Made by a program: the position numbers and the translations under genes
Shown here: one piece after another, positions 2-53,070 of the stretch
Position numbering within the stretch: position 1 is the stretch's first letter
Layout: every line of letters begins with the position of its first letter
DNA from: a virus
Taxonomy: Duplodnaviria; Caudoviricetes
DNA length: 59,454 nucleotides
Direction: 5' to 3' (one strand)
IMG/VR virus record: IMGVR_UViG_3300014720_001630
Span: 1 to 59,454 of that record
Notes under the pieces: generated by a model
The model's database searches: none
Seen by the model: the letters and a program-made list of their open reading frames with translations, nothing else
What the model was told of the DNA's origin: nothing

Positions 2-157
2 GCCGCGACCGACGCCGCGACCGACGCCGCGACCGCCGCCGCGACCTACGCCGCGACCGACGCCGCGACCGCCGCCGCGACCTACGCCGCGACCGTCGCC
101 GCGACCTACGCCGCGACCGCCGCCGCGACCTACGCCGCGACCGCCGCCGCGACCGAC
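2..157 (+). repeat. In-frame 12-bp tandem repeat GCCGCGACC(GAC/GCC/TAC/GTC), 13 visible units
   Basis: Read directly from the sequence. The variable codon runs D,D,A,Y,D,A,Y,V,Y,A,Y,A,D. Confidence 0.97.
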
Positions 158-894: not shown

Positions 895-1233
895 ATGCGG
901 ACTTTCAAGAACGTGTGCGCGCAGGGCGACGTGTACATCCGGCGCATCGACAAGCTGCCGGAGGCGGCGGTGCCGGTGCCGGCGGAGAAGGGCGTCGTGG
1001 TCGTGGCGCACAGCGAAACGGGACACAACCACGTCATGGAGGCCGACACCGTGACGCTGCACCGGCTGCCGGACAGCATCATGGACTGCTTCCTTGAGGT
1101 GAATGAACCCACGGCGCTGGAGCACCTGCGGCCGACGGACACGCACGAGCCGATCATGTTCGAGAAGGGCGTCTACCATGTGCGGCGGCAACGCGAGCAC
1201 ACGCCGGAAGGCTGGCGCCGCGTGGAGGACTGA
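895..1233 (+). CDS. QGDV-motif protein (usual partner of DUF6745-like genes)
   Basis: AAGGAG SD upstream. Motifs QGDVYI, AHSETGHNH, L.H....H..I....GVY.VRRQRE, GWRRVED. Confidence 0.8.
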   Translation: MRTFKNVCAQGDVYIRRIDKLPEAAVPVPAEKGVVVVAHSETGHNHVMEADTVTLHRLPDSIMDCFLEVNEPTALEHLRPTDTHEPIMFEKGVYHVRRQREHTPEGWRRVED

Positions 1234-1234
1234 C

Positions 1235-1345
1235 ATGCACGGCCCGCTGTCGGTCGGCGCTGTGTGGTCGCGGCTTGTGGCTGCGGCGTCGGCGTGGGCG
1301 GCGCGCGGCTGGCGGCGGGCGGTGTATGTGTGGAGGACGCGATGA
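1235..1345 (+). CDS. Small hypothetical protein (36 aa)
   Basis: ATG 1 nt after the previous stop, GGAGG upstream, ATGA overlap with the next gene. Confidence 0.45.
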   Translation: MHGPLSVGAVWSRLVAAASAWAARGWRRAVYVWRTR

Positions 1346-8655: not shown

Positions 8656-9828
8656 ATGGCAGGCAAGCAAGCATCCGAAGGCAACGCCGACCGCGGCGAG
8701 TCCATCGTCAGCATGTCCACCATGAAAACGGCGGTGGGCGACATCGACACCATGACGATCTCGCCGAAGGGCGACACGGAAGTGGAAGTCGGCGAGGCGG
8801 ACGAGGGCGACCAGAATGGGGTCCAGATCAACGACAAGGTTGGCGCGCGTGAAGGTGCGCCGGCGGACAAAGGAGGAGACGGCGAAGCGGCCGAGGGCGA
8901 GGAAGGCAACGCCAACCTTTCCGATGAAGTCGGCGACCGTCCCAAGAAAAAGCCCTTCAAGGCCACCCGCGACGGGCGCATCAACGCCCTGACCGGCAAG
9001 CTGCGCGAGACGGAGCGCACGGCCGAGGACTACCGGCGCGAGTTGGAGGAGGAGCGCGCCAAGCGCGCCGCCATCGAGAACGAGAAGCGCCTGTCGGACT
9101 ATGCCGCCGTCATGCACTACTCGGACAAGCTCAAGGCCGACGAGCGCGAACTGATCCGCGAACTCAAGGACGCCAAGGACAAGGCGGACACGGAGAAGGA
9201 AGCCGAGATCCAGTCGAAGCTCTCCGACGTGCAGGGCCGCAAGCGCGAAGCCGAGGCGTGGGTCAACAACAACAAGCCGCCGGAAGCGCCGCCGAAAAAG
9301 GAGGCGACTGCGGAGCAGCCGGCACCCAAGGAGCAGCCGCGCCCCAAGGTGACGTACCAAGGCGAGGCGGCGCGGTGGGTGCAGGAGAACCCGTGGTTCA
9401 ACGAGGGGACGCCCGACTACGACCCCGACCTGTCCACCTACGCGCGGAACTTCGCCACCGGCCTTGAAATCCGCCTCAAGCGTGCGGGCAACGAGGCGGC
9501 GATCGGCAGCAAGGACTATTTCGCCGCCATCGACAACCACATGCGGCAGGCGTTCCCCGACGCATTCGGCGACGATGACGACGGCGACGAACCGCCAGCC
9601 GAGACGCCGCCCCCGCGCGGCAACGGCATCGCGCCGGCGCGGTCCTCCGGCGGCCAGCCCGCGCGCACGGGCCAGCCCGCCAATCCGAACAAGGTGGTCT
9701 TGACGCAGGAACAGCGCGAGGTCGCGCATGGTATGATCCTGCGTCACCCCGACGGGCGCTCGTTCTCGCCACGCGAGAAGGAAATCGCCTACGCCAAGAG
9801 CCTCGTGTCACTCAAGAAGGGAGCCTGA
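8656..9828 (+). CDS. Putative capsid scaffolding protein
   Basis: Acidic N-terminus, long coiled coil (RINALTGKLRE...), W..ENPWF, C-terminal VVLTQEQREVA; position between portal and capsid. Confidence 0.75.
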   Translation: MAGKQASEGNADRGESIVSMSTMKTAVGDIDTMTISPKGDTEVEVGEADEGDQNGVQINDKVGAREGAPADKGGDGEAAEGEEGNANLSDEVGDRPKKKPFKATRDGRINALTGKLRETERTAEDYRRELEEERAKRAAIENEKRLSDYAAVMHYSDKLKADERELIRELKDAKDKADTEKEAEIQSKLSDVQGRKREAEAWVNNNKPPEAPPKKEATAEQPAPKEQPRPKVTYQGEAARWVQENPWFNEGTPDYDPDLSTYARNFATGLEIRLKRAGNEAAIGSKDYFAAIDNHMRQAFPDAFGDDDDGDEPPAETPPPRGNGIAPARSSGGQPARTGQPANPNKVVLTQEQREVAHGMILRHPDGRSFSPREKEIAYAKSLVSLKKGA

Positions 9829-11285: not shown

Positions 11286-12191
11286 ATGACGGTCAATACC
11301 ACCCAGATCCGCGACCTGCTCCGCCCCGGACTTGCCGCGGTTTTCGGCGACTACCCGATGTATCCGGCCCAGTGGACCGAGATCTTCGAGAAGCACACGT
11401 CCGACAAGGCCGTGGAGATCGAAGTCGAAATGAAGATGCTCGGCCTTGCGCAGATCAAGCAGGAAGGTGCGAGCATCGCCTACGACACGATGGGCCAGCG
11501 GTTCGTCACGAACTACGTCCACCGTTACGTCGGCCTCGGCTTCATCATCACGCGGCAGGCGATCAAGGACAACCTGTACAAGTCCCGCTTCCCGCTCCAG
11601 CAGCAGGCGCTCAAGCGTTCGCTGCTCCAGACGAAGGAAGTGCTCGGCGCCTCGGTGCTGAACAACGGCTTCGACACGAACTTCCCCATCGGCGACGGCC
11701 AACCGCTGTTCTCGACGGCCCATCCGATCGACGGTTCGACGCAGGCCAACACCTTCACGGTGCAGGCCGACCTCAACGAAACCTCCTTGCAGGACGCCAT
11801 CACCGGCATCCAGCGGTTCCGCGATGTCGCCGGCCTGCGCGTCATGACGAAGCCCAAGAAGCTCATCGTCCCGACGCCGCTCCAGTGGACGGCCGACCGC
11901 CTGCTCAACTCGCAGTTCCGCACCGGCACCGCCAACAACGACATCTCGGCGCTCTACAACACCTCCGCCGTGCCGCAGGGCTACCGCGTCAACCAGTTCC
12001 TCACGGACGACAATGCGTGGTTCGTGATGACGGACGCGGACAACTCGTTCAAGTACTACGACCGCGAGCCGCTCGAAATCGATATGTACACGGACTTCGA
12101 TAATGACAACTTGAAGGTCAAGGCCATCGAGCGGTATTCGTTCGGCGTGTCGAACTGGCGCGGTGCGTGGGGCTCGCAGGGTTCCACCTGA
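11286..12191 (+). CDS. Major capsid protein (Mu gpT-like, HK97 fold)
   Basis: LLRPGL..FG.Y, DNLY, GDGQPLFSTAHP, PKKLIVP, ERYSFGVSNWRGAWGS; strong codon bias. Confidence 0.9.
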   Translation: MTVNTTQIRDLLRPGLAAVFGDYPMYPAQWTEIFEKHTSDKAVEIEVEMKMLGLAQIKQEGASIAYDTMGQRFVTNYVHRYVGLGFIITRQAIKDNLYKSRFPLQQQALKRSLLQTKEVLGASVLNNGFDTNFPIGDGQPLFSTAHPIDGSTQANTFTVQADLNETSLQDAITGIQRFRDVAGLRVMTKPKKLIVPTPLQWTADRLLNSQFRTGTANNDISALYNTSAVPQGYRVNQFLTDDNAWFVMTDADNSFKYYDREPLEIDMYTDFDNDNLKVKAIERYSFGVSNWRGAWGSQGST

Positions 12192-32871: not shown

Positions 32872-35800
32872 ATGGCACAGTCCATCGCGCCGCCGGACGA
32901 TTTGGTATCGCCGCCTGACGACCTTGTGGCCGTCAAGGGTCCGCCCGACGATTTGATCCAACCGCCGGACGACTTGGTTGCTGCACCTGCACAGCGGGGC
33001 TTCTTCGAGGCTCTTGGTGCGGGTGCTACGGCCGGCGTCGAGGCGCTTGGCGAGCAGGCCGGTACGCTTGGTGCGCTGGCGACGGGCCGCGCTGCCGAGG
33101 CTGCCGTGGAGGGCGCCAAGCCGCCGACCGCGCTGGACGAGCGCACGCGGGATATGTCGATCTGGCAGAAGATCACGGACCCCGAGTGGCTTGCCTACAA
33201 CATCGGCCAGACGGCTCCGCAGTCCGCGCCCTTTCTTGGTGGTGCTATTGCAGGCGGCGCGGCGGGCTCGCTTGCTGGCCCCGTCGGCACCCTCATCGGC
33301 GCGATGGTCGGCGGCGGCGGTGCGGCGGGCGCGCAGCAGTTGGCCGAGGCGTACAACGAGGCGCGGCGCGCGGGTCAGGACCACGACAAGGCGGTAGACA
33401 CGGCGATGATCGCGGGCCTTGCGTCGGCTGGCATCAACGCGGCGTCGGTGCCCGCCGGTCTGTTGCGCATCGCCAAGGGTCCGATTCAGTACGCGCTGAC
33501 ACAGATGGCCGTGCAGCCGGCGATCGGTGGTGCGGAGCAGGCGGCGCAGAACGTGATCGCCCGCGAGCGCGGCGTGGATCCTGACCGGCCTATCGGACAG
33601 GGCGTGCCCGAGGCCATCGCCCTAGAGGCGCTGTTTGAGGGGCCGGCGCAGGCGGCGGGGACGTTCGCCGGGCGCCGCGCGCTGCCGCAGGGCCAGCAAC
33701 CGCCGCCGGACTTGGTGGCGCCGACTGAGGCCGAGCCTGCCGCGGTCGAGCCGCCCGCCAAAGCGCCGGACATCAACGAGCCGTTCGGGTTTGAGATCGA
33801 ACCAGGTCGCGTCGTTCCCGCCCGCGTGCTGGAGTATTTCGAGCAGGACGGCACGCTCTACGCCCGTCTTGCCGAGGAGACGCCGGACGCTGCGGCCATG
33901 TCCACGCCCGAGGTGGTCGCGGTAGACGACATGCTTGGGCTCGTGCGCGATGCGGTGCCGGAGCCGGAGGGGCGGGCGCGTCCGACCGAGGCCGAGCCGG
34001 TCAGCCTTACAGACGAGGCGGCGCGCTTTGGCGAGGGGGTTCCTGACGAGCCCGAGAGTCCGCAGGGGCGGCTAGCCGTCGAGACGCCGCAGGGTCCGCT
34101 GCAAATGCGGATCGAGAACCTGTCGCCGCGCACGCTGGACGGTGCCGTGCGCGCCAACTACGAGGCGGCCGAGCGGCTTGAGCGCGACCCGGTGGTGGCG
34201 CTTGACCGTTACATGAGCCAGCAGGGCATGAGCCCCGAGGAAGCCGAGGCGGCGGTCCAGCGCGACATCGCCAAGTTCCGCGAGAACGGGCGCATGTACG
34301 AGGCCGAGCGGCGCCGGCGGCAGGGTGAGGAGACGCCGGACGTGGATCCGCGCGCGGGCCTGACGCCGTTGCTGCGCCAGCGTCCCGAGGTGAGCGAGGC
34401 AGACACGGGGCCACTGACGCGCCCGCGACCGGAAGGGCCGGGGCCTGTGCAGGGTGCGCTTGGTCCGGTGGCAGGCAGCGAGGCTGAAACTGGGGTGCCC
34501 TTGACGCGGCCGCGCCGCGAGGCGCCGCTGATGACCATGCGCGGTGGCGTGCCGGTCAGCACCGAGTTGGCAGGACGGCAGCCGACGCCGCGGCAGGCTC
34601 GCTTGCAGCCGCAGGAGCAGCGCGTCCGCACGCCGGAGGAAGTCGAGGCCGACAGGCAGGCCGCAGAGGCGCGCGCCGCAGAAGCAAAGCGTCGTGCTGA
34701 ACCTGCGGCGGTGCGCTATTTCGACTACGACAAGAAAAAGTCGTTTGTCAAAATGCTCGATCGCACGGTCGGCAAGCGCAACTACACGCTCGAAAAGTCG
34801 GGTGGTGGCTGGCGCGCTACCGTTAAGGACGGCGTCAAGTTGACCGAGGGCCAGCGCGAGGCATTGGATGCGTCGCTCAATGCTCAACGGCAGCGCAGGA
34901 CGAAAGCGTCTGAAACAGCTAAGGCGCGCGGGCCTTCGCAGAAGTCAATGTCGCTTTTGGAGTCCATCGCGCAGCGCGGCATCCGCGCCGGAAGTCCCGC
35001 CGCTCAACGTCTTGGCGAGCCGACGCTTGCTCGATGGAAGCCCGAGAAGGCACTTGGGCCGGGACGTTATTCTCGCTTAATCGTGCAAGAAGGCGACCCG
35101 CGCTGGCAGAACGCCGTCACCGAGACGGACCAGTTGGCTGGTTTCCTTGAGGGCATAGACCCGCTCTACATTGGCGAGGAATACCGCGGCAACAAGTCGG
35201 CGTATGAGCGCGTCGAGGAATTGATCGGCGAGGAACTGTCGGGCAACCGGCAGATGCCGCTCGACTACTACGACAGTGAGCAGGCTGCCGCCGACCGCGC
35301 GCAGGCGCTTGTCGATCAATACGGTAACGAGGCCGACGCGACGGACATTGATGCCGCGCTTGATGCGCGTGATGTTGTCGATCCCGACGACCCCTCAACG
35401 TACATGGACTACGAACCGCCGCCGGTATCCGACGCCGAGTGGGCATCCATCATGGAGGAATACGATGTTGGGCAACGAGACGCCGGAGGAGAAGCATCGC
35501 CGCGCGCTGAGGAATCTGCGGTCGGTGAGGGCCGTGATGGCGAGGCCCGAGTTGAAGCCCGAGAAGCGGGAACAGGTGCGGCGGCTGCTGGAGAAACAGA
35601 AGCGGCTGGTGCGCCTGTGCGCGGAACAACTGAAACCGTCCGCAACGTCGTAGGCGCCACCGAGCAGGGCGTCATCCCCGGCACCGAGCAGTCGGCAAAG
35701 CAGGCACAGGCCGCGCGCGATGCGAAGGGTGGGCTACGGGCTACCGTCGAACAGAAGAAAGCGGACGAGGGGTTGTTCTCTCCTCCGGCCATCGCGCAAG

Positions 35801-38800
35801 AAACGCTGCCCATGTCGCCGGACCAGTTGTTCGTGCAGATGGGTGAGCGCCAGTATCCCGTGAAGTCGCTTGCCGAGGCGTCAGATAAATTTGCGCGGGC
35901 GCGCGACACATATGGCGAAGGTGCGAGCAAGACGCCGACGCCAATTGTGGTTGACGGGCGCGGCGATGTCGTCGGGTACATCGCGTATAATGGAAAAGTT
36001 TTCCCCGGTCGCCCGCAAGATTGGCAAGAAGGCGTCAAACCGCTGTTCACGCCCGGCGAGCCAGAAGCTCCGAGGCTTATCGCCAAGCCCGACGACCAGA
36101 ATCCCCTATTCGAGTTGCAATCCACCGCCCGCGAAACCGAGCGCATGTCGGAGCAGGCGGTGCGCGATGCCATCGCCGCCATCGCCGGTCCCGAGGCTGC
36201 GAAGCGCGCGGTCGTGGAGCCCGGCACCGATGGAATCCGCGGCTCGTTCGATCCTGCCGATGGCGTCATAAGCGTTGCCGTCCGCAGCCCCGACATGCGG
36301 GGCACGCTGCGGCACGAGTCGCTGCACTACCTCAAGAGCATGGGTGCCTTCTCGCCGACGGAGTGGGCCACGCTTGAGAAGGCGGCGGTCGAGTGGCGCG
36401 AGAAGTACGACATCGACCGGCGGTACAACGAGGATACCGTTACCGACGTGTCGCCCGAGACGCTTGAGCGAATCCGCAAGGAGGAAGCCATCGCGGCAGC
36501 CTACGCGGAGTGGGCGCGCGGCGACATGCCGGGGCTGGCGCCCAAGATCCGCGCGCTGTTCGAGCGAATCCGCGCCATTCTCGACGCCATCCGTGCGCGG
36601 GTGATGGGTAGCCCCGAGACGGCACGGGCGATCTTCTACAACATCGACAACGGCAAGTACGTCGCCGCTGCAACGCGCGCCGATCGTGCGCGGTTTGCAA
36701 GTGCGGTGGCCGACGCTGACATGGCTGCGGCGACTGTCGCTGCGGACGGCGAGCAGGCAGTCGGCGGCAACGTGCCGCGCAAGGAAGCTGCGGCGCTGCG
36801 GATGTTCGAGCGCGAGCCGATAGAGAAGCGCACCGGCCCGCGCTGGCTGTCGTGGGGCACGCGCATCGCGTCGTTCCCGCTTGCGCGTGCGGCGAACGAT
36901 CCGATGTTTGCGCCCTACGTCAACGCGGAACTGTCGCGGCAGAAGCGCGAGTCGGCCATCACGCGGACGATCCAGACGGGCGTGGAGCCTATCTTCCGGC
37001 TGCCGACCAAGGAGCAGAACGAGGTCCGCAAGGCGCTGGAATTGATCGCACTCAACAACTCGTTCCCGCCGGTCATCAACGGGCGCATGACGGTGCAGAA
37101 CCAGTCCGGCAAGATCGCCCGCCTCACCGGCCCCAAGCGCATCGTCCGCCTGTCCCCCGAGGCGACCAAGGCCATGCTGTCGTACAAGGCCGGCATGGAC
37201 GCAGCGTGGGATGCGTATGCGACGGGTGCGGTGCGCAACGCCACGAACTACACGGGCGACATGACGGTGGAGGCAGCGCAGGCGGCGGCGCAACAGGCGG
37301 TCGCTGCGGGTCAGAAGTCTGCGACCAAGGATGCCGAGACGGCGGCGCTGATCCTGCAAGCGGCCAAGGAACAGAAGCGGCGCGGCTACTATCCGGCCAT
37401 GCGTGACGGCGATACGCAGGTCATCGTGCGGCGCAAACTGACGCCCGAGTTCGCGCGCATCATCGGCATGGCGCGGTCGCGCGGCTACCCGAAGGGCGAG
37501 CCGCTGACTGCCGAGGGGCTGGACAAGTTCGTGGATGCGGCGCGGACGACAAAGGACATCGAGTTCTGGTCGGGCCTGCGCTCGGACTTTGACGACGCGC
37601 GCGGCGAGAAGGGTGTCGTCTCGGTCAACGACGACATGGTTTGGAACGAACATTTCTACGTCAAGCCGCCGTTCATGGGCGAGGTCATCCCCATGACGGA
37701 GCGTGCGCGCCAGCGTGCGACGGAAGCCAAGAAGGCCGAGGTTGCGGAACTGATGACGCGGCGCGGGCTTGACATGCGCGAGTACGAGATCGTCACGCGG
37801 CCCGTTCGCGAGAGCCTGCAAGACACGATCAACGACCAGTCCGTGCCGGTATTCGAGAAGCTGTTGAAGGTCGCGACGGACGGCGACCCCAAGATGTTCG
37901 CGGAACTGTGGCCGCAAATGCGCGATGCCATAGCCAAGGAATTGGTGTCGGGCTTCCGCAAGCGGTCGGACGTGGTGCCGGGGTTCTCGATGGACATCGG
38001 CGACACGCTCTCGCGCTACAGTCATGCGGTCGGCAATGTCGCGGCCAAGCTTGAATACAAGAAGGGCATTGACGAGTCGCTGCGCTCCATCATGGAGAAC
38101 CACCCCGACCCTGCGATGCGCGGGTCCAACGGGTATGCGGCACGGCTCAAGGACTACGTTGACAATCCGGCGCAGGACTACAACGCGCTCAAGTCGTTCG
38201 GGTTCATGTACTACCTCGCAGGCGTCCCGAGTACCGCCGTGCAGAACATGGCGCAGGTGCCGATGCTCATGGTCCCGCAGATGACGGGGCTGCTTGGCGT
38301 GCGCGGGGCTGGCATCGTGCGGCAGGCGTGGACCGACTCGCTGCGTGGCGTCACGTTCGGCAAGGGCGGCGTGCGGATGGATGTGTCCAAGTTGGGCAAG
38401 ACGCCGGCCGAGCGCGCGTTCCTCAAGCGCATGGACGACGAGGGGCAGATTTCCGCGTCCGTCACGCGGGAGTTGATGGGGCGCGACTACGACGTGGGGC
38501 CGCGGCTTGAGGCGGCGCAAGGGTTCTGGCGCAAGACGTACACAGTGGCGGCGTCCATGTTCGACGCGGCGGAGAGCCTTAACCGGGCGACGGCTTTGCT
38601 TGCGGGATACCGTGCGGCGCAGGTGCCGGGTGCCGACGCCAAGCTCAAGAAGGTCTACGGCCAGAACCAGAACTACCGCGAGATGGCGAACCGCGACGGC
38701 ACGATCGACCCCGAGGCGTTCGGCGAGTTCTTCTCCCGTGAGGTCAATTTCGAGGGCAGCCGCGTCAACCGGCCCGAGGCGCTGCGCGGTGCGGGCGGCG

Positions 38801-39738
38801 TCATCCTGCAATTCAAGTCGTACCCCATGAACTACATTTCGCTCCTGCGGAAGAACGCCACGCAGATGGGGCCGGAGGGTAAGGCGGCGTTCATCATGAT
38901 GATCGGCATGATGCTGCTCGGCGGTGGCCTGCTCGGGCTGCCGTTCGCGGAGGATATGGCGGACTTGTTCGACCAGGTTGCCAAGATCGTGACCGACGAG
39001 AACGAGGGTGCCGTGCATACCCTCGCGGCCATGATGGAGGACTGGAGGCTTGGCAAGTACGGCGCGGAGATGATGCTGCGCGGCGTGTCCCGTCCGACCG
39101 GCGTGGATCTGTCGCGCACGCTCGGCATGGGCAACATCGCACCGCGCATGGACAACCCGGTCGCGGTGCTCGGGCCGACGGCATCGGCCCTGCTCGCTGG
39201 TCCGTACTACGGCTACAAGCGCCTCGACACGGGCCAGTCGGTCGCGTCTGCGGCAATGGAGGTGGCACCCCGCGCGCTCAAGGGACCGCTACAGGCGGCT
39301 GCCGTGCTGCCGGAGGAAGGGCTTGTCAGCCGGACGGGGCGCCAGATCATTCCCCCGTCCGAGGTGAGCACGGGCGCCAAGGCGGCCCGCGCCCTAGGCT
39401 TCCAGCCGACCGAGTTCTCGCGCGAGTACGAGGCCCGCGGCTACCGGCAGGACGTGCAGGCCAAGGCGCTGGCCGAGGCGACAAGGCTCAAGTCCCAGTA
39501 CCAGCGGCTCAACGCGCTGGCCTACGACCAAGAGCGCGCCGGCGACAAGGACAAGGCCGAGCAAACCAAGCTGCGCGCCCGTCGCGTGGCCGAGAACATG
39601 GCTGCCAAGGGCATTGCCGTGCCGCGTGGGCGCGATGCCGTCGGTCCAAATGTGGACCCCGAGGCGGCGGCAGTCCGGCAGGCGCCCCGTCGCGTGCGCG
39701 AGCGGATGATGGATAGTCCGTATCCGGGGCGGGAGTAG
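32872..39738 (+). CDS. Giant (2288 aa) ejection / large polyvalent protein
   Basis: Last late gene. PPDDL repeats, zincin-like LRHESLHY...EEAIA, C-terminal LQFKSYP...GLLGLPF...ALGFQP region. Confidence 0.85.
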   Translation: MAQSIAPPDDLVSPPDDLVAVKGPPDDLIQPPDDLVAAPAQRGFFEALGAGATAGVEALGEQAGTLGALATGRAAEAAVEGAKPPTALDERTRDMSIWQKITDPEWLAYNIGQTAPQSAPFLGGAIAGGAAGSLAGPVGTLIGAMVGGGGAAGAQQLAEAYNEARRAGQDHDKAVDTAMIAGLASAGINAASVPAGLLRIAKGPIQYALTQMAVQPAIGGAEQAAQNVIARERGVDPDRPIGQGVPEAIALEALFEGPAQAAGTFAGRRALPQGQQPPPDLVAPTEAEPAAVEPPAKAPDINEPFGFEIEPGRVVPARVLEYFEQDGTLYARLAEETPDAAAMSTPEVVAVDDMLGLVRDAVPEPEGRARPTEAEPVSLTDEAARFGEGVPDEPESPQGRLAVETPQGPLQMRIENLSPRTLDGAVRANYEAAERLERDPVVALDRYMSQQGMSPEEAEAAVQRDIAKFRENGRMYEAERRRRQGEETPDVDPRAGLTPLLRQRPEVSEADTGPLTRPRPEGPGPVQGALGPVAGSEAETGVPLTRPRREAPLMTMRGGVPVSTELAGRQPTPRQARLQPQEQRVRTPEEVEADRQAAEARAAEAKRRAEPAAVRYFDYDKKKSFVKMLDRTVGKRNYTLEKSGGGWRATVKDGVKLTEGQREALDASLNAQRQRRTKASETAKARGPSQKSMSLLESIAQRGIRAGSPAAQRLGEPTLARWKPEKALGPGRYSRLIVQEGDPRWQNAVTETDQLAGFLEGIDPLYIGEEYRGNKSAYERVEELIGEELSGNRQMPLDYYDSEQAAADRAQALVDQYGNEADATDIDAALDARDVVDPDDPSTYMDYEPPPVSDAEWASIMEEYDVGQRDAGGEASPRAEESAVGEGRDGEARVEAREAGTGAAAAGETEAAGAPVRGTTETVRNVVGATEQGVIPGTEQSAKQAQAARDAKGGLRATVEQKKADEGLFSPPAIAQETLPMSPDQLFVQMGERQYPVKSLAEASDKFARARDTYGEGASKTPTPIVVDGRGDVVGYIAYNGKVFPGRPQDWQEGVKPLFTPGEPEAPRLIAKPDDQNPLFELQSTARETERMSEQAVRDAIAAIAGPEAAKRAVVEPGTDGIRGSFDPADGVISVAVRSPDMRGTLRHESLHYLKSMGAFSPTEWATLEKAAVEWREKYDIDRRYNEDTVTDVSPETLERIRKEEAIAAAYAEWARGDMPGLAPKIRALFERIRAILDAIRARVMGSPETARAIFYNIDNGKYVAAATRADRARFASAVADADMAAATVAADGEQAVGGNVPRKEAAALRMFEREPIEKRTGPRWLSWGTRIASFPLARAANDPMFAPYVNAELSRQKRESAITRTIQTGVEPIFRLPTKEQNEVRKALELIALNNSFPPVINGRMTVQNQSGKIARLTGPKRIVRLSPEATKAMLSYKAGMDAAWDAYATGAVRNATNYTGDMTVEAAQAAAQQAVAAGQKSATKDAETAALILQAAKEQKRRGYYPAMRDGDTQVIVRRKLTPEFARIIGMARSRGYPKGEPLTAEGLDKFVDAARTTKDIEFWSGLRSDFDDARGEKGVVSVNDDMVWNEHFYVKPPFMGEVIPMTERARQRATEAKKAEVAELMTRRGLDMREYEIVTRPVRESLQDTINDQSVPVFEKLLKVATDGDPKMFAELWPQMRDAIAKELVSGFRKRSDVVPGFSMDIGDTLSRYSHAVGNVAAKLEYKKGIDESLRSIMENHPDPAMRGSNGYAARLKDYVDNPAQDYNALKSFGFMYYLAGVPSTAVQNMAQVPMLMVPQMTGLLGVRGAGIVRQAWTDSLRGVTFGKGGVRMDVSKLGKTPAERAFLKRMDDEGQISASVTRELMGRDYDVGPRLEAAQGFWRKTYTVAASMFDAAESLNRATALLAGYRAAQVPGADAKLKKVYGQNQNYREMANRDGTIDPEAFGEFFSREVNFEGSRVNRPEALRGAGGVILQFKSYPMNYISLLRKNATQMGPEGKAAFIMMIGMMLLGGGLLGLPFAEDMADLFDQVAKIVTDENEGAVHTLAAMMEDWRLGKYGAEMMLRGVSRPTGVDLSRTLGMGNIAPRMDNPVAVLGPTASALLAGPYYGYKRLDTGQSVASAAMEVAPRALKGPLQAAAVLPEEGLVSRTGRQIIPPSEVSTGAKAARALGFQPTEFSREYEARGYRQDVQAKALAEATRLKSQYQRLNALAYDQERAGDKDKAEQTKLRARRVAENMAAKGIAVPRGRDAVGPNVDPEAAAVRQAPRRVRERMMDSPYPGRE

Positions 39739-39745
39739 GGCAGCG

Positions 39746-39808
39746 CCCCGGCAGGAGCTTGCGCCTGTGCCGGGGGCCTATCCGCTAGGCGCGGAAGGTG
39801 CGCCTAGC
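39746..39808. other. Two GC-rich hairpins at the convergence of the late operon and the leftward RNA
   Basis: CCCCGGCA/TGCCGGGG (39746-39775) and GCTAGGCGC/GCGCCTAGC (39784-39808). Neither strand has a U-tract. Confidence 0.7.
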
Positions 39809-39814
39809 ACAAGC

Positions 39815-39921
39815 GTTGCGAGCCAGTCGGGGCATCCCATTTGACTGGAGCGCGCGTCCTCAGTTCGCCGTGCACGACTCCCTGAGTAGGCACCCTTAGC
39901 CGCTGTTTCCAGCCTCGCAAC
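39815..39921 (-). ncRNA. Candidate structured non-coding RNA (multi-helix junction, about 107 nt core)
   Basis: TATAAT promoter 6-7 nt upstream. GUUGCGAG/CUCGCAAC closing helix, GCUG-GAAA-CAGC, CUCAG/CUGAG and CCAGUC/GACUGG stems. Confidence 0.7.
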
Positions 39922-39927
39922 CCCCGC

Positions 39928-39969
39928 ATTATACAAGTCGTTGCACCACATGCAACAGCGGGGTATAAA
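39928..39969. promoter_or_regulatory. Overlapping divergent promoters with a palindromic operator
   Basis: Leftward TTGCAT-N16-TATAAT (39955-39928), rightward TTGCAC-N17-TATAAA (39941-39969), palindrome GTTGCA-N5-TGCAAC at 39940-39956. Confidence 0.8.
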
Positions 39970-39975
39970 TACCCC

Positions 39976-40179
39976 ATGACGCTGGAGCAATACCGCCAAG
40001 TCCAAGGGCTTACGAACAACCGCCTCGCGGTCCTGATCGGCGTGGACAAGTCCACCATCAGCCGCCTGCGCCGCGGCGTGACGCGGCCCACGAGCGACAC
40101 CGCGCGCCTCATCGTGGCCGTGACGAACGGGGCCGTGACGATGGCGGATCTGTATGGGCAGGCCGATGCGGAAGCGTAG
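39976..40179 (+). CDS. Cro/YdaS-like HTH regulator, probably leaderless
   Basis: LA.LIGVDKSTISRLRRG..RP...I...TNGAVTMADL. ATG lies 6 nt after the -10 hexamer and there is no SD. Confidence 0.9.
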   Translation: MTLEQYRQVQGLTNNRLAVLIGVDKSTISRLRRGVTRPTSDTARLIVAVTNGAVTMADLYGQADAEA

Positions 40180-40291
40180 GCTCGTGCGCCGGCCGCGCCT
40201 TGAGTTGGGCCGCGTTGGGCTGCTGCGGCAGGCGTTGACCACCGCATATTGGCATCGTGAAGCACGACATGCGTTTTGGGGGATGCAATGA
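40166..40291 (+). CDS. Possible 41-aa Arg-rich micro-protein
   Basis: MRKRRLVRRPRLE...; bridges the gap, ATGA overlap with the next gene. Confidence 0.4.
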   Translation: MRKRRLVRRPRLELGRVGLLRQALTTAYWHREARHAFWGMQ

Positions 40292-40671
40292 GCTTCAAGG
40301 TCCGCCTCAAGGGCGCCGAGCCCGAGAAGAAAGCCGACATCGTGGCCGCCGCCCGCGAGGTGCTGGAGAACAGCCGCGCGCTACTGCTGTGCAAGCCGCA
40401 CTACACGGTCGGCCAGCCGCAATTTTTTGGGCTCTATCGCAAGAAGCTGCATGTCCTGCGCACAATCAACGCGGACGGGTATCAACCGTTCGAGAAGCGC
40501 AACGACCGGACTCTGGCGTTCGCCATCGCCATCCTCGTGGCCGACGAGAAGGGGCCGACCAAAGCCGAGACGAAGTGGCTGTCATGGGCCGACGAGCGCG
40601 GCGTCATCTGCCATGTCGTCAAAACCTGGGGCGAGTTCCGGCACGCGGTCGGGGAGTTGTCGGAGATTTAG
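40288..40671 (+). CDS. Degenerate VRR-NUC-like protein
   Basis: C-terminal GPTKAETKWL.....RGVICHVVKTWGEF resembles the VRR-NUC tail; no clear PD-(D/E)xK motif. Confidence 0.5.
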   Translation: MSFKVRLKGAEPEKKADIVAAAREVLENSRALLLCKPHYTVGQPQFFGLYRKKLHVLRTINADGYQPFEKRNDRTLAFAIAILVADEKGPTKAETKWLSWADERGVICHVVKTWGEFRHAVGELSEI

Positions 40672-48148: not shown

Positions 48149-48709
48149 CTATCCTGTCGGCTGCGGCGAGGGCGTCAGTCTGCGAGCACCGTCCGTCGGC
48201 TGCGGTGTGGGTGCGGTAGTCGGCGTCACGTCGATCAGCTTGCCGGACAGGTACGCCTCAAGCTCCTGCGTGCTCATCGTCTCGACGGACTTGCGGACGT
48301 TGACGTTGACCTCGGTGGTGATGAGGCCGTTGACCTTGGCAAGCGCTTCGAGCAGCCCGCGGCCGGCGGTCGCCTGACCTGGCGAGATGCGTTCGGCCTT
48401 CAGGTCGTCCAGCAACGATGCGATCTCGCGGTTCACGAAGTCGCGCGTGATCTCGACGCGGCTCTGCTCGCCGACGGGCGTGCCCTTGGGATTCCGCTCG
48501 GCCTCGATGCGGCGGACGGTCGCTTCCTGCGCGCGACGGAGCAGCGGCGCATAGAACGGGTCCGACATGATCTGGTCGTACTCGGCCTGCCCCAAGCCGA
48601 CGGCGCGGGCAGCGGCCAGCGGATTGAAGTTGCGGCCTAGTTCTTGGAAGAACAGGTCTTGCTTTGCGGTGAGGGGCTTGTCGCCGGGAGGCTTGTCAGG
48701 GGCCGTCAT
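48149..48709 (-). CDS. Terminase small subunit-like protein
   Basis: LTAKQDLF..E....N...AARAVG, ITRDFV..E, ALAK.NGL, C-terminal MSTQEL. Confidence 0.75.
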   Translation of the reverse strand: MTAPDKPPGDKPLTAKQDLFFQELGRNFNPLAAARAVGLGQAEYDQIMSDPFYAPLLRRAQEATVRRIEAERNPKGTPVGEQSRVEITRDFVNREIASLLDDLKAERISPGQATAGRGLLEALAKVNGLITTEVNVNVRKSVETMSTQELEAYLSGKLIDVTPTTAPTPQPTDGARRLTPSPQPTG

Positions 48710-49191
48710 ATCTCACCTGTCGGGGTGGGCTTCTTCGGTCGGGAGGGGCCGGTGGACAAGACCGGCCCCATGACGCTGTTTCCAGCGCCAGCCCCGACAG
48801 GAAGCGCGACCGGTATAGCATCGGCCCGCTTGAGATGCAACACTTGTTGCGGCGTGAACATGCGGGCGACCCCCTCTAGCGCGTCGTCAACCGATCGCGC
48901 GAGGATGTAAGTCCCGCCGGCGGCTTCGATCGCGCCCTGCCAATCTATCTGCTCATCGCTCTGCTTGGACCATCGGACGGGGCGCTTGACCTCGATCGCC
49001 AAGAACCTTCCGTAGTAGCAGCCGAGAATGTCAGCCTGTCCCGGCATGCCGCCGAAGCGGATCGAGCGCGGGCCACCTTTGGTCCGCACCCATCCGTTGC
49101 CGACGGCGCTGCGCCAGATCGCCATGCCGGGGTAGGTGCCCAAGGCTAGGAGGATCTGGTCTTGGATGGTTTTTTCTTTGGGGGGCGGCAT
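48706..49191 (-). CDS. VRR-NUC domain nuclease
   Basis: EKTIQ..I, GQADIL, FLAIEVK, S.EQ..W...I..AGG.Y..ARSVDD. Confidence 0.92.
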   Translation of the reverse strand: MPPPKEKTIQDQILLALGTYPGMAIWRSAVGNGWVRTKGGPRSIRFGGMPGQADILGCYYGRFLAIEVKRPVRWSKQSDEQIDWQGAIEAAGGTYILARSVDDALEGVARMFTPQQVLHLKRADAIPVALPVGAGAGNSVMGPVLSTGPSRPKKPTPTGEI

Positions 49192-49328: not shown

Positions 49329-49891
49329 GGGCTCACCCATCCGAGCGTGGGCGGTCCTTTGTGCGAGTGATCCCAAACGAACCATGCAAACGCGATCATG
49401 CCGCCCTCGTGCTTCTCAGCCAGCCGGGCACGCTGCAAGCTGAGGCGTCCGGCGAACACCCATACCCGCGCAAGCGGCGTGCTCTCAAACATCTTGCGCC
49501 GCTCGCGGCCCTCAAGCCATGCGAGGCGGCACAGCATGGCGACCTTGCCTGTGGTCAAGTCGAGCGCCTTGCGCACGAACGGCTCGGCCATCTTGAACGG
49601 CGGGTTGGTCACGATGTTGGGCGCGCGCGGCTTGTATTCCATGAGGAAGTCGGCGCGCGACTCTCCGTACCCTCGGTCAACCAAGTCGCTGCTGATAACC
49701 TCGTAGCCTGCGTCAATGAGCACCTTGCTGATCGCGCCGTCGCCGCATGCGGGTTCCCATATCGGCCCGTCGAAACGCTCGACCGACAGCAACGCGCGCG
49801 TGCCCTCCGGCGGCGTAGGATAGAAGTCGTCACGCTCGCGGTTCTCGGCGTCGGGAATGATGCCGCGGACATATGCTTGTGCTCCGCTCAT
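49325..49891 (-). CDS. DNA amino-(N6-adenine) methyltransferase
   Basis: DFYPTP, WEPACGDG, IVTNPPF. Confidence 0.9.
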   Translation of the reverse strand: MSGAQAYVRGIIPDAENRERDDFYPTPPEGTRALLSVERFDGPIWEPACGDGAISKVLIDAGYEVISSDLVDRGYGESRADFLMEYKPRAPNIVTNPPFKMAEPFVRKALDLTTGKVAMLCRLAWLEGRERRKMFESTPLARVWVFAGRLSLQRARLAEKHEGGMIAFAWFVWDHSHKGPPTLGWVSP

Positions 49892-52344
49892 CCCGCCTTA
49901 ACCCCCATCTCCAAAGCCAGCCGCATCCTGTCGCGCTCTTTCTTCTGCCGTCCCGCAAGCACGATCTCGGCCCATCCGCGCTTGTAGCCCTTTGCCGCCT
50001 CGACGGCCTTGAGCGATTGCAGGGCGGCGTCCCAGTAGCCCTTTGGCTTGCCCGTCTCGGCGTGGCTGCCGCGCACGATGCGCTCAAGCTCGCCCTCGAC
50101 GTACTCCACCTCGCGGACCTTGACGGTATACGCATGGCCGCAGCGCGGGCAAGTGGGGCTGAATTTGTGCACCGAGAGGCACTTGGGGCAGTTGCGGAGT
50201 GCTACCGCCCGCTCGTCGCTCGTCTCGCGCTTGGCGCCGCCGTCCAGCGTCCACGCCACGCGCTCGTCGGGGAGGCCGTGGACGAGGGTGTTGCCGGCGT
50301 GGTCAAGGATTATGAGCGACTGCTTGCCGGGGAAGGGACGCAAGCCGCGGCCGATCTGCTGGCGGTGAAGCCCCATGCTCTTGGTCGGCCGCAAAAGAAT
50401 GACGACCTCGATCCTGGGAATGTCCGTGCCCTCGGAGATGATGTCGCACGAAGTCAGGCCGTGGATCTTGCCGTCGGTCATGTCCTTGATGAGGCCGCGC
50501 CGCTCCTCCGCGCTCATCTTGCCGTCGATGCTCTTGAACCGATAGCCGGCGGCGCGGAATTGTGCCGCGACTTCCTCAGCGTGCGCGACAGAGACGCAGA
50601 ACACCACCGCGCTCTTGCCGTCCGCGAGGCGCTTGTAGTGCTTGACCGCATCGCCTGTGATCGCGGCCTTGCGCATCGCGGCGTCAAGCTCGGACGAAAC
50701 GTAGTCGCCGGCGCGCGTGTGGACGCCCGACAGGTTGGGCGGCTTCGGGGCGTAGACCTCGAAGTCGGACAGGAAGCCTTGCGTGATTAACTCGTCGGTG
50801 TGCGGACCTAGCACCATCGCGTCGAAGATGTCGCCGAGTCCTTTGCCGTCGAGGCGGCAGGGTGTGGCGGTGAGGCCGACGACCTTGGCCTCGGGGAAGT
50901 GGCGGATTACGTCGGCCCATGTCTTAGCCAGCGCGTGATGCGTTTCGTCCACGAACAGCAGGTCTGGCTTGAGCGGCAGCCGTTCCTTGCGTCGGTGGAG
51001 CGTGCCGATCGACGCCACGATGACGTTGGCGCGCGGCATGCCGTGCGTGGCGGCCGTGAGGAACGAGAACGGCACGCCTACTGTGCGCAATGCGGCGCCA
51101 AGCTGGAACACGATCTCCGTGCGATGCCCGAGATAGATCGCGCTCTTGCCGTTCTTGTGCAGGCCGGCGCCGATCAAGGATGCGATGGCGGTGTTGTGTG
51201 TCACCGTCATGTCGCCGAGCAGGTACAGGTTGTCGCCGCCCACTTCGAAGCCGAAATACTCACCCAAGCCAACGTGCTCAATCGACCGCACACCAGTAAG
51301 AAGCACGTCCTTAATTTGTTTCCTGCGCGCGGCGATTTTTCGGGGCAATCTGCATGGAACGGTGTCGATGTCTCCGCTGATTGAAATAGACGTATACTGG
51401 CCGACCGCGCCATTGTTGTAACAAGTTTTACTTGTGCGGCGCGCATATGCGGCAAGTCCAAGCGAGCGCGCCAAAAATAAAATGTCGTTTGCAAGCGCCT
51501 CGGACTTCTGCGAAATCAAATATCCTTTGTGGCTGTAATAACCGTCGGAGTCGATTAAACCCGCCATCAATTGCAGGCGCGCTTCGCGCGTGGCTGTCTT
51601 GTAGATTTGCGGGATATGTTTATTGTTGACCACCCGCATTTTCTTGAGTTGCGAGAAAACCGGATTTGAGTCCGAGCGGCCCGTTCTTCCCGCTGTCAAA
51701 ATGTATGTAGAGGCTTTGTTGTTTTTCTTGCTGTCTACCCGGACGCCAAGCCCATATCGATGCGCTGTTTCGTACACAACAGAGGAAATTTCTCCGTCCA
51801 TTGTCGTGATGCCGGCCTTCGCCGATGCGCCATCGCCGAGCCAGAGCCCGAAGAAATAAGGATCGAGCGGCAAATCTTTTGACTCTGCGGCACCGTCAAA
51901 CGTGACAGGAACGCGCCACAATTTGAGCAAATGTTTGGTGGTCTTTCCAGCGCAAAGCCATGCCGCAACGCTCATATTGACAGTCTCGCCGCCGCGCCAA
52001 CCTCCAACCCCCTTCGCGCCGTTAGTGACGCGAAAACTCAAAGTGTGGTTGGCCGTCACAACGAACGGGTCGCCCTTCACTGGCGTGACGCGGAATAGGT
52101 CCGCGGTGCCGTTGCCAGTTGCGACGACCGTGCGCGGTCGGCTGTCTGGTCCCAACAACTTGTGCCCAACCCGAATGTCTTGAGACATAAGAACGCGCCC
52201 GTCTGCCATGAGAACGGGCGTATCGCGCGCCAGACACTTGCCTCCGCCGGTCGGCAGCACGAAGCACACGCGCTTTGCGCCCGCGCTGAATGCCGCGCGG
52301 ATGTCTTGGATCGCTTGCGTTTGGTAGGGGCGCGGGGTGAGCAT
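49888..52344 (-). CDS. SF2 DEAD/DEAH-box helicase containing an intein
   Basis: RPYQ, PTGGGK|T, DETHH, TATP, QQIGRGLR, C-terminal CPKC/CPRC. Confidence 0.95.
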   Translation of the reverse strand: MLTPRPYQTQAIQDIRAAFSAGAKRVCFVLPTGGGKCLARDTPVLMADGRVLMSQDIRVGHKLLGPDSRPRTVVATGNGTADLFRVTPVKGDPFVVTANHTLSFRVTNGAKGVGGWRGGETVNMSVAAWLCAGKTTKHLLKLWRVPVTFDGAAESKDLPLDPYFFGLWLGDGASAKAGITTMDGEISSVVYETAHRYGLGVRVDSKKNNKASTYILTAGRTGRSDSNPVFSQLKKMRVVNNKHIPQIYKTATREARLQLMAGLIDSDGYYSHKGYLISQKSEALANDILFLARSLGLAAYARRTSKTCYNNGAVGQYTSISISGDIDTVPCRLPRKIAARRKQIKDVLLTGVRSIEHVGLGEYFGFEVGGDNLYLLGDMTVTHNTAIASLIGAGLHKNGKSAIYLGHRTEIVFQLGAALRTVGVPFSFLTAATHGMPRANVIVASIGTLHRRKERLPLKPDLLFVDETHHALAKTWADVIRHFPEAKVVGLTATPCRLDGKGLGDIFDAMVLGPHTDELITQGFLSDFEVYAPKPPNLSGVHTRAGDYVSSELDAAMRKAAITGDAVKHYKRLADGKSAVVFCVSVAHAEEVAAQFRAAGYRFKSIDGKMSAEERRGLIKDMTDGKIHGLTSCDIISEGTDIPRIEVVILLRPTKSMGLHRQQIGRGLRPFPGKQSLIILDHAGNTLVHGLPDERVAWTLDGGAKRETSDERAVALRNCPKCLSVHKFSPTCPRCGHAYTVKVREVEYVEGELERIVRGSHAETGKPKGYWDAALQSLKAVEAAKGYKRGWAEIVLAGRQKKERDRMRLALEMGVKAG
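51193..52236 (-). mobile_element. Intein with LAGLIDADG homing endonuclease (348 aa)
   Basis: Starts CLARDT, ends VTHN before Thr. Contains TANH, FGLWLGDG and MAGLIDSDG; more AT-rich than its flanks. Confidence 0.95.
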
Positions 52345-52559
52345 TACGCCTGCCGTGCAGCCTCCGCCGTCCGCGGCTCCGGCCAGTCCATCAAGCCCAC
52401 CGCCCCCCGCGTGGCGACGAACACGCGGCGCACGAGCGAATACGTCGGCTGCCGCTTGCCTTGCGTGACGAACGTAAGTGTCGAGGGATGCTCGCCGATC
52501 GCGCGGGCAAACTCCGCCTGCCGGATGTTCTGCGTGGTCAGCCAGTCCTTGAGTGTCAT
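52344..52559 (-). CDS. Second Cro/YdaS-like HTH regulator
   Basis: MTLKDWL....QAEFARAIG...STL....GKRQP...T.GAV...DW. Confidence 0.9.
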   Translation of the reverse strand: MTLKDWLTTQNIRQAEFARAIGEHPSTLTFVTQGKRQPTYSLVRRVFVATRGAVGLMDWPEPRTAEAARQA

Positions 52560-52606
52560 GGGGTGCTCCTTGCCTTGCGCGGCAGCGTATTTGGTCGGTG
52601 GCTCTC

Positions 52607-52657
52607 AACCTACCGCGTGCAACACTTATTGACAAGGGGTGCGCGCAGGAATAGTGT
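52607..52657. promoter_or_regulatory. Overlapping divergent promoters
   Basis: Rightward TTGACA-N17-TAGTGT (52629-52657), leftward TTGTCA-N17-TAGGTT (52635-52607); contains TGCAACACT. Confidence 0.75.
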
Positions 52658-52683
52658 GGCGACCTCACGACAGGAGGACAAGC

Positions 52684-53070
52684 ATGCCCCGCCCCGGCAC
52701 GCATCAAGGCACCTACAGCGTCGAACTCGAACTCGCGGAGGTGGACGAAAACCCCGCGGCGACGTTCGTGCTCGACATCGAATACACCTACAGCCCCGGC
52801 AGGCCCGCGCGCTTATCTCCATGGCCGGGCGAGCCCCCCGAGGGCGCCGAACTCGAAACTGAGGCCGACCTGTTCCTGCTCGACGGGACCAAGCGCATCG
52901 CCATTCCCGCCGAGGCGAAGGCGTGGCTGCTGCGCGTCATCGACCCCGCGCGCTACGTCAACAGGATCTTGAACCAGGCCGCCGAGGAAGCCACGGACGC
53001 GCGCGCCGCAGCGCAGGAGGCTCGGTGGGAAAGCCGGCGCGAGGAGAGGGAGATGGCAAGTGACCGATAA
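52684..53070 (+). CDS. Hypothetical early protein
   Basis: GACAGGAGG SD. Confidence 0.75.
   Translation: MPRPGTHQGTYSVELELAEVDENPAATFVLDIEYTYSPGRPARLSPWPGEPPEGAELETEADLFLLDGTKRIAIPAEAKAWLLRVIDPARYVNRILNQAAEEATDARAAAQEARWESRREEREMASDR

Follow-up and report, generated by a model that had tools for sequence, protein, structure and literature searches.

A candidate structured RNA between a giant virion gene and a small regulator gene in a freshwater phage

What is the role of a non-coding gap that folds into a compact set of helices between a giant virion gene and the gene of a small helix-turn-helix (HTH) regulator, and which strand, if either, carries it as RNA? The gap (39739-39975) lies in the IMG/VR virus record IMGVR_UViG_3300014720_001630 (Duplodnaviria; Caudoviricetes), which was analysed over its full 59454 bp and is called the window here; the record is estimated to be 93% complete, has 65% GC and represents an uncultured freshwater phage lineage. 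A previous sequence-only reading of this DNA had proposed a structured, undescribed RNA transcribed leftward at 39784-39933, within a gap that it put at about 190 nt and that is in fact 237 nt long. On the evidence of sequence comparison, the element at 39815-39921 is a real structure, conserved under selection for base pairing and without a described family. The reading we favour predicts that it forms the body of a leftward, operator-controlled small non-coding RNA of about 105-180 nt belonging to a new family; we hold this view tentatively, with somewhat less than even confidence, and the finding is at present a well-founded candidate and not a result.

The element and its counterpart in a syntenic locus

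By folding, the element proper is a four-way junction of 107 nt on the minus strand (39815-39921), composed of helices P1 to P4. The closing helix P1 joins its 3' arm at 39815-39822 (GTTGCGAG) to its 5' arm at 39914-39921 (CTCGCAAC), with Watson-Crick pairs at all 8 of 8 positions, and the first base of the 5' arm is the predicted transcription start (+1), 6 nt downstream of a TATAAT box. P2, a GCUG-GAAA-CAGC hairpin (39913-39902, minus strand), abuts the 5' arm of P1 flush. It is followed on the same strand by the long arm P3 (39849-39896), which has a CUCAG/CUGAG stem, GGA/GAA internal loops and a GUCG-UGCA-CGGC cap, and by P4 (39823-39848), a CCAGUC/GACUGG stem of 6 bp with a 14-nt loop that is flush against the 3' arm of P1. 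Pair probabilities on the minus strand of the window are at least 0.96 for P1 and P4. These four helices, a 9-bp hairpin beyond them and the leftward promoter sequence were all found at the coordinates that the sequence-only reading had claimed, and its placing of the start on the first base of the closing helix fits a credible leftward promoter.

Searches of metagenome contigs yielded two related loci, L005 and L006. L006 has the giant gene without an HTH module after it, and L005 is the only homologous locus compared, so that the comparison rests on two sequences. In L005 a gap separates the giant gene from a 62-aa HTH gene, next to which come a homologue of the 127-aa gene that also follows the HTH gene in the window, and then RecT in the opposite direction. 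The coding flanks of the two loci are 71-73% identical. The gaps give no syntenic blastn alignment at E<=10 and no conserved peptide, the best six-frame blastp match having E 0.012 over 17 aa.

Pairing in the gap is nevertheless kept. P1 retains 7 of its 8 aligned pairs in L005, 2 of them by a double change (GC TA TA GC CG GC AT GC in the window and GC AT TA GC CG GC GC GG in L005), and P4 retains all 6 of its pairs, 3 by a double change (CG CG AT GC TA CG and GC CG AT GC GC GC, respectively). Taken together, 13 of the 14 aligned pairs are kept and 5 of them changed on both sides; one-sided changes that preserve pairing are absent (there is no G-U intermediate), and the single loss is the eighth P1 pair, which is G.G in L005. 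Common to the P4 loops of both loci is AA-GGGA as read on the minus strand (TCCC-TT on the plus). The P1 arm nearer the promoter (5' on the minus strand) is at a distance of exactly 18 nt from an operator-like palindrome in the window and in L005, whereas lengths elsewhere in the gap differ (76 versus 56 nt before P1 and 107 versus 88 nt for the junction, window versus L005). The earlier claim of a non-coding element constrained by pairing is supported.

The chance expectation for such an arrangement was estimated by Monte Carlo simulation, with criteria set on the window and applied to L005: a perfect helix of at least 7 bp that ends 18 +/- 1 nt away from the operator and has a span of 70-140 nt, and, as a second criterion, an additional flush hairpin of at least 6 bp. 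Among 200000 dinucleotide shuffles of the 134-nt L005 gap, 2205 contained the helix and 20 contained the helix together with the flush hairpin. The formation of P1 in L005 also depends on where a leftward RNA would begin, with a P1 probability of 0.88-1.0 if the start is the first P1 base and of 0.13-0.15 with 18 upstream nt. The phage itself was found in 6 sequencing runs, all of them DNA from lake water and none of them RNA. In the 4 runs compared, those contigs that cover 39739-39975 show zero differences to the window (X3 across the whole gap, X4 and X5 over parts of it) and therefore add no covariation information; X6 covers only 39985-40155, inside the HTH gene, with 7 differences.

Compared with shuffled sequence, the minus strand of 39739-39927 (189 nt) is unusually stable at -104 kcal/mol (z -3.98, 0 of 200 shuffles as stable), and the plus strand of the same 189 nt has z -1.91 (5 of 200). 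For the 107-nt core, the minimum free energy of the minus strand is -50.2 kcal/mol (z -3.4, 0 of 300 shuffles), against z -2.51 for the plus strand (4 of 300). Ranked among 7912 genome segments of the same length, the fold belongs to the most stable 3.4% by raw energy and to the most stable 0.47% after GC correction. The energy difference between minus and plus strand is ordinary for this genome, in which 8% of segments differ as much.

No described RNA family accounts for the element. None of the 4227 models of Rfam 15 reached its gathering score anywhere in the window, and in E-value mode (E<=10) over 39600-40100 there were 2 weak matches, both at 39606-39722 in the 3' end of the giant gene, and none in 39739-39975. 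The L005 gap gave 8 matches, all far under the gathering score (best E 0.87). On this check of both gaps, the description of the RNA as undescribed stands. ARAGORN found no tRNA or tmRNA at the element. Its sole call in the window, a 93-nt 'tRNA-Pro(agg)' at 49-141 (-), was taken as spurious, as it falls within the tandem array of a 12-nt unit that occupies the left end of the record (1-162; 13.5 copies, consensus CGCCGCGACCGA, 88% matches).

Relatives proved scarce in every collection searched. Viral contigs held nothing related when the C-terminus of the giant protein, a 131-aa protein, two alignments or one further protein served as query; the only viral-contig match of the HTH protein (L002) is an unrelated low-GC phage without synteny, and the DNA pattern of operator plus promoter matched 5 viral loci, all of them low-GC chance matches. 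Genome contigs searched with the two alignments gave no relative, and GenBank phages gave no blastn or tblastn match for the gap or for the 127-aa protein. In the F116-like phages H66 and 8P, lysis genes follow the giant gene instead of an HTH module. Among 5.8 billion proteins, the giant protein has 5 close homologues (65-69% identity over the C-terminal region), all metagenomic. In those parts of the literature that the searches opened, a phage intergenic four-way-junction RNA brought up nothing relevant, and PLxRFG, the protein type that the giant protein resembles, brought up no paper about an RNA.

Promoters, strand and competing explanations

The operator-like palindrome GTTGCA-N5-TGCAAC at 39940-39956 is the sole perfect GTTGC-N7-GCAAC in the window, and it bears a TTGCA(C/T) -35 element on each strand, that is, for both of two divergent promoters. 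The predicted leftward promoter, read from sequence, is TTGCAT-N16-TATAAT (39955-39928, minus strand), with TTGCAT at 39955-39950, a 16-nt spacer and TATAAT at 39933-39928. With both strands of the 59-kb window counted, there are just 2 TATAAT hexamers, one of them in this promoter. A consensus promoter scan omits the leftward promoter, as its -35 matches 3/6 and falls under the scan cut-off. On the plus strand, the promoter TTGCAC-N17-TATAAA (39941-39969) ends 6 nt before the ATG of the HTH gene without a Shine-Dalgarno sequence, and a leaderless HTH mRNA is therefore predicted. In L005 the operator GTTGC-N7-GCAAC is kept at 9559-9575 as a single perfect copy in the locus. The rightward promoter there (TTGCGC-N17-TATAAC, 6 nt, then the ATG of the HTH gene at 9595) has the same geometry and likewise no Shine-Dalgarno sequence, and the leftward TTGCAT and promoter geometry are also retained, but not the leftward -10 box.

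Two hairpins lie between the junction and the giant gene. T1 (39744-39777), a GC-rich hairpin right after the stop codon of the giant gene, has a perfect 8-bp core (CCCCGGCA/TGCCGGGG at 39746-39753/39768-39775) that is seen in folds of both strands; it is likely the late-operon terminator and, in reverse, the final hairpin met by a leftward transcript. L005 has a counterpart, a terminator-like hairpin at 9397-9424 directly after the stop codon. T2 (39784-39792/39800-39808) is the perfect 9-bp hairpin GCTAGGCGC-N7-GCGCCTAGC; it is not kept in L005, which has only a short CGCC-CTA-GGCG hairpin in its place. A scan for terminator-like sites found none in 39739-39975 on either strand.

We favour a leftward RNA because the order of parts on the minus strand is that of a small-RNA gene (promoter, structure from +1, GC hairpins), because on the plus strand the element sits behind an operon terminator, because a P1 that begins at +1 would explain its exact distance of 18 nt from the operator, and because P1 of L005 forms well only when the RNA starts at its first base.

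A series of observations weighs against this reading. Much of the junction differs in L005, where P2 has 6 bp and an 8-nt loop and is set off by a 4-nt linker, P3 has 7 bp with a CUCG cap and is not alignable with P3 of the window, and the GNRA loop and purine internal loop are absent. Compensatory change of the kind that the sequence-only reading had asked for among homologues is found at one locus for P1 and P4 and does not reach P2 and P3, and two sequences are too few for true covariation statistics. A covariance model derived only from the sequence and structure of the window gives L005 4.5 bits (E 0.36 in 401 nt, filters off) and finds no match there with default filters. The preference for the minus strand that had been drawn from the GNRA loop and G-U pairs is a property of the window and is not carried over, since in L005 the plus strand is slightly better in energy (-42.2 versus -39.5 kcal/mol) and over the whole gap (z -3.25 with 0 of 200 shuffles, versus -2.39 for the minus strand). 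The predicted leftward promoter has no TATAAT in L005: the -10 at the spacing of the window is GTAGAT (2/6), the alternative is TAGATG (3/6) with a 17-nt spacer and TG upstream, and no TTG-N19-TANNNT is found there. The rightward -10 boxes (TATAAA in the window, TATAAC in L005) likewise lack the final T, and the promoters of this module may be non-canonical in general, which is an excuse and not evidence. No U-run follows the hairpins on either strand, in the window or in L005. Finally, z values near -4 are also found inside coding DNA of the same genome, for example at 11750-11890 (-) with z -4.17 and -74.1 kcal/mol.

These points open the way to other explanations. The element could belong to the plus strand, made by late read-through past T1, and act at a 3' end or between cistrons, for example in processing or stability or as a barrier before the HTH promoter, with a logic like that of lambda sib, and we regard this as unlikely. 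Read-through is plausible given T1 hairpins without a good U-run, and the plus strand of L005, besides folding as well as the minus strand or better, forms a compact junction with a P1 probability of 0.88-0.89 in full context. Watson-Crick double changes do not discriminate between strands, and the leftward -10 box that would tie the element to the minus strand is the one that is not conserved. Still, a functional RNA downstream of an operon terminator would be unusual, and the two U.G pairs that P3 has on the minus strand of the window become C.A mismatches on the plus strand at a cost of about 8 kcal/mol. The exact 18-nt operator spacing has no obvious purpose on the plus strand, and neither the window sequence nor the promoter scan nor L005 offers a plus-strand promoter between T1/T2 and P1. 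The symmetry of the structure between strands would also suit a signal in DNA or single-stranded DNA, such as a binding or looping site for the HTH protein, or a replication or recombination signal read as a folded single strand, perhaps by the VRR-NUC-like protein. Such a signal would account for the P1 arms of the window (GTTGC.../...GCAAC), which are identical to operator half-sites, and for an imperfect operator copy (GTTTCCAGCCTCGCAAC, one mismatch) at 39905-39921, which overlaps P2 and P1 and is centred 35 bp from the centre of the real operator; the product of the next gene, moreover, has a weak junction-nuclease-like fold. In L005, however, the P1 arms became GATGC/GCATC by a compensating double change (T-A to A-T) while the operator stayed GTTGC/GCAAC, as pairing predicts and recognition by the same protein does not, which favours pairing over P1 arms as extra operator half-sites. 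The imperfect copy has no counterpart in L005, extrusion of a 107-nt cloverleaf from duplex DNA is energetically unlikely, and the 127-aa protein shows no evident nuclease residues by eye and no Pfam match, all of which makes the DNA signal a distinctly improbable explanation.

It could also be that the element has no function of its own and that a GC-rich cluster of terminator or insulator hairpins between transcription units takes on a four-way shape by accident of high GC. Inverted 8-nt repeats are indeed frequent locally (36 inverted pairs in 701 nt of this 65% GC DNA), and the stable fold in coding DNA, the modest rank by raw energy, the failure of the covariance model to transfer to L005 and the lack of conservation of half of the structure (P2 and P3) all fit this account. 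We give it a low probability in view of the simulation, in which P1 at fixed distance with a flush P4 arose in only 20 of the 200000 shuffles of the L005 gap, and of the pattern of change itself, with five double substitutions, no one-sided pairing-preserving change and one lost pair of 14 in a gap that has diverged beyond blastn detection.

Proposed mechanism and known phage systems

If the leftward small RNA is real, RNA polymerase would start at or near 39921, using a promoter with its -35 box within the GTTGC-N7-GCAAC palindrome. The HTH protein bound to this palindrome would shut off its own gene together with the RNA, since the palindrome holds the -35 of both. From its first nucleotide the RNA is predicted, from folding and comparison, to adopt a tRNA-shaped four-way junction, in which the conserved portion would be the flush P1 and P4 helices, which could stack end to end, plus the AA-GGGA loop of P4, with P2 and P3 free to vary. 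The transcript would then meet the late-operon terminator hairpin, or hairpins, from the reverse side. A pseudoknot proposed by the sequence-only reading could form in the window with 9 pairs and one bulge (-10.4 kcal/mol); L005 offers a different contact, between the P2 loop and the P4 loop (5 bp, -7.9 kcal/mol), and the two are not homologous and carry no weight.

The weakest step is what the RNA would do. The roles in immunity, as a decoy or in protein binding that had been suggested before are guesses. Our own guess is that the RNA more probably binds a protein or serves as a decoy than exerts antisense control, because no particular complementarity to the neighbouring mRNA was found: the strongest duplex that the RNA forms with the first 60 nt of the HTH mRNA does not exceed what shuffled RNA achieves (z -0.03 in the window, -0.23 in L005), and the neighbouring gene is therefore probably not an antisense target. 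A reading of the GGA-rich loops as CsrA/RsmA-type sites was dismissed as too weak (GGA occurs 4 times on the minus and 1 time on the plus strand in the window, and 4 and 3 times in L005). In its most specific form, the proposal would be an undescribed family of tRNA-shaped phage RNAs, placed back to back with a leaderless HTH autoregulator, with one palindromic operator switching both and the RNA acting as a protein-binder or decoy, for example by titrating a host regulator or defence sensor via the conserved GGGA-containing P4 loop; we think this quite unlikely as a whole. Were it true, the HTH/RNA pair would be a self-contained RNA-based accessory switch outside the main early control region. 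Confirmation of the leftward transcript itself would establish a new phage small-RNA family of unusual architecture, in which a single palindrome governs a leaderless regulator gene and a divergent structured RNA, and would add to the few cases of phages that use structured RNAs, not proteins, as regulators or decoys.

Known phage systems resemble the locus in part. In P22 immI, the divergent promoters Pant and Pmnt are controlled by Arc and Mnt, and the small RNA sar is a simple antisense RNA directed at the ribosome-binding site of ant. As in immI, a secondary regulatory module is located here within or behind the late genes and apart from the main early switch, with a small DNA-binding regulator on overlapping divergent promoters that have a common operator, and with a small RNA, here predicted. 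In contrast to sar, the element shows no complementarity to the HTH mRNA above shuffled controls; the regulator is of the HTH_3 type and not a ribbon-helix-helix protein, and no antirepressor was recognised in family scans. The C4 RNA of P1/P7 and the CI RNA of P4 are RNA immunity factors of about 70-80 nt that are processed by RNase P and act in place of a protein regulator. They are cut from the same-strand leader of the operon that they control and pair with downstream target repeats, and their tRNA-like helix stack is relevant to processing. The element shares with them the character, here predicted, of a structured phage RNA with a tRNA-like helix stack. Unlike them, it lies beyond the HTH promoter, its predicted RNA is divergent from the neighbouring operon, the gap has no Rfam match, and complementarity to the first 60 nt of the HTH mRNA is lacking. 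Membership in the P22 immI type or in the C4/CI type is not supported.

The likeness to tRNA is one of outline: the minus strand forms a cloverleaf with a closing stem of 7-8 bp and three arms, the last of which directly adjoins the 3' strand of the closing stem, as the T arm adjoins the acceptor stem. It differs from tRNA in that ARAGORN is negative, the loops of 4 nt and 14 nt are wrong, and there is neither a T-loop nor a CCA-like end. Lambda oop/sib-type elements are small structured elements at a transcription-unit boundary whose effect depends on the polymerase that reads them; the element here is also at a boundary of transcription units and, in contrast, is without a sequence or family match.

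Phage genome and neighbouring genes

The gene layout was drawn from a gene map based on GC at third codon positions (GC3) together with family searches. A rightward block from about 200 to 40671 holds SSB, the large terminase, the portal and structural genes, and the last of its virion genes encodes the giant protein of 2288 aa (32872-39738). Over its C-terminal part this protein shows about 26% identity to the giant PLxRFG proteins of F116-like Pseudomonas phages, and its PLxRFG-type matches comprise 43 records, every one below 60% identity; the portal is 37-40% identical to portals of podoviruses of the Pelagibacter phage HTVC023P type. A leftward block extends from near 52559 to 40668 and encodes a 71-aa HTH_3 protein, an intein-bearing helicase, methyltransferases, a Prim-Pol/D5 primase, a YqaJ exonuclease and RecT. 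Between the converging blocks is a small rightward unit made up of the 67-aa HTH_3 gene (39976-40179) and the 127-aa gene (40288-40671), which is preceded by the 237-nt gap with the structured element inside. Family scans of window proteins, which covered part of the open reading frames (ORFs), found no integrase.

This layout bears on the suggestion that the element occupies the place of a cI gene. The HTH gene at 39976 is situated between the 3' ends of two operons, the rightward virion operon and the leftward replication/recombination operon, and the head-to-head early region is at 52560-52684, where the second small HTH_3 gene (71 aa) points left; no cI gene is therefore 'missing' at 39784-39933. 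A lambdoid cI/cro switch was rejected for the locus as a whole: the HTH gene stands behind the last virion gene, opposite the 3' end of the RecT/YqaJ/primase operon, the head of the leftward operon with the other HTH_3 gene is at 52344-52684, and the perfect operator motif occurs once in the window. The region 52344-52684 is the likely true early control region, with a rightward TTGACA-N17-TAGTGT promoter followed by a GGAGG ribosome-binding site; it holds one TGCAAC half-site of the 39940 operator and lacks the full operator.

The 67-aa product of the HTH gene (plus strand) is an Xre/Cro-type regulator (Pfam HTH_3, E 1.6e-9) that has 32 residues identical to the 62-aa HTH protein of L005. The 127-aa gene, also on the plus strand, is probably co-transcribed with it. 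Its product has no Pfam or PHROG family and a weakly VRR-NUC-like fold: the ESM Atlas feature score to VRR_NUC clusters is 0.93, with structure rows in agreement, and the AlphaFold2 (AF2) model (pLDDT 79.9) has its best PDB match in 4qbo, a VRR_NUC domain, a weak match at E 0.03 and TM 0.50/0.65. The customary nuclease residues are not evident in the alignment by eye. The protein is 63% identical to its L005 counterpart, and the family is very small, with 4 other members at 61-84% identity, all metagenomic, among 5.8 billion proteins. A paralogous relation to the product of the 160-aa ORF at 48706-49188 was rejected (hhalign probability 0.1; Pfam blank for both).

Stable folds were also noted elsewhere in the window. 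At 1195-1345 (+) there is, as at 11750-11890 (-), a very stable, strand-asymmetric fold in or antisense to coding DNA (z -3.27, -89.2 kcal/mol for 1195-1345), and at 48690-48830 (-) a stable two-hairpin fold (z -3.48) overlaps the 3' end of the same 160-aa ORF. The latter shares the 13-mer GCTGGAAACAGCG with P2 (second copy at 48774-48786), which was dismissed as a meaningful repeat, as the window has 630 repeated 13-mers. The helicase ORF at 49888-52707 (-), a ResIII/Helicase_C protein, contains Hint, homing-endonuclease and LAGLIDADG domains at about residues 158-432, and an intein is therefore indicated.

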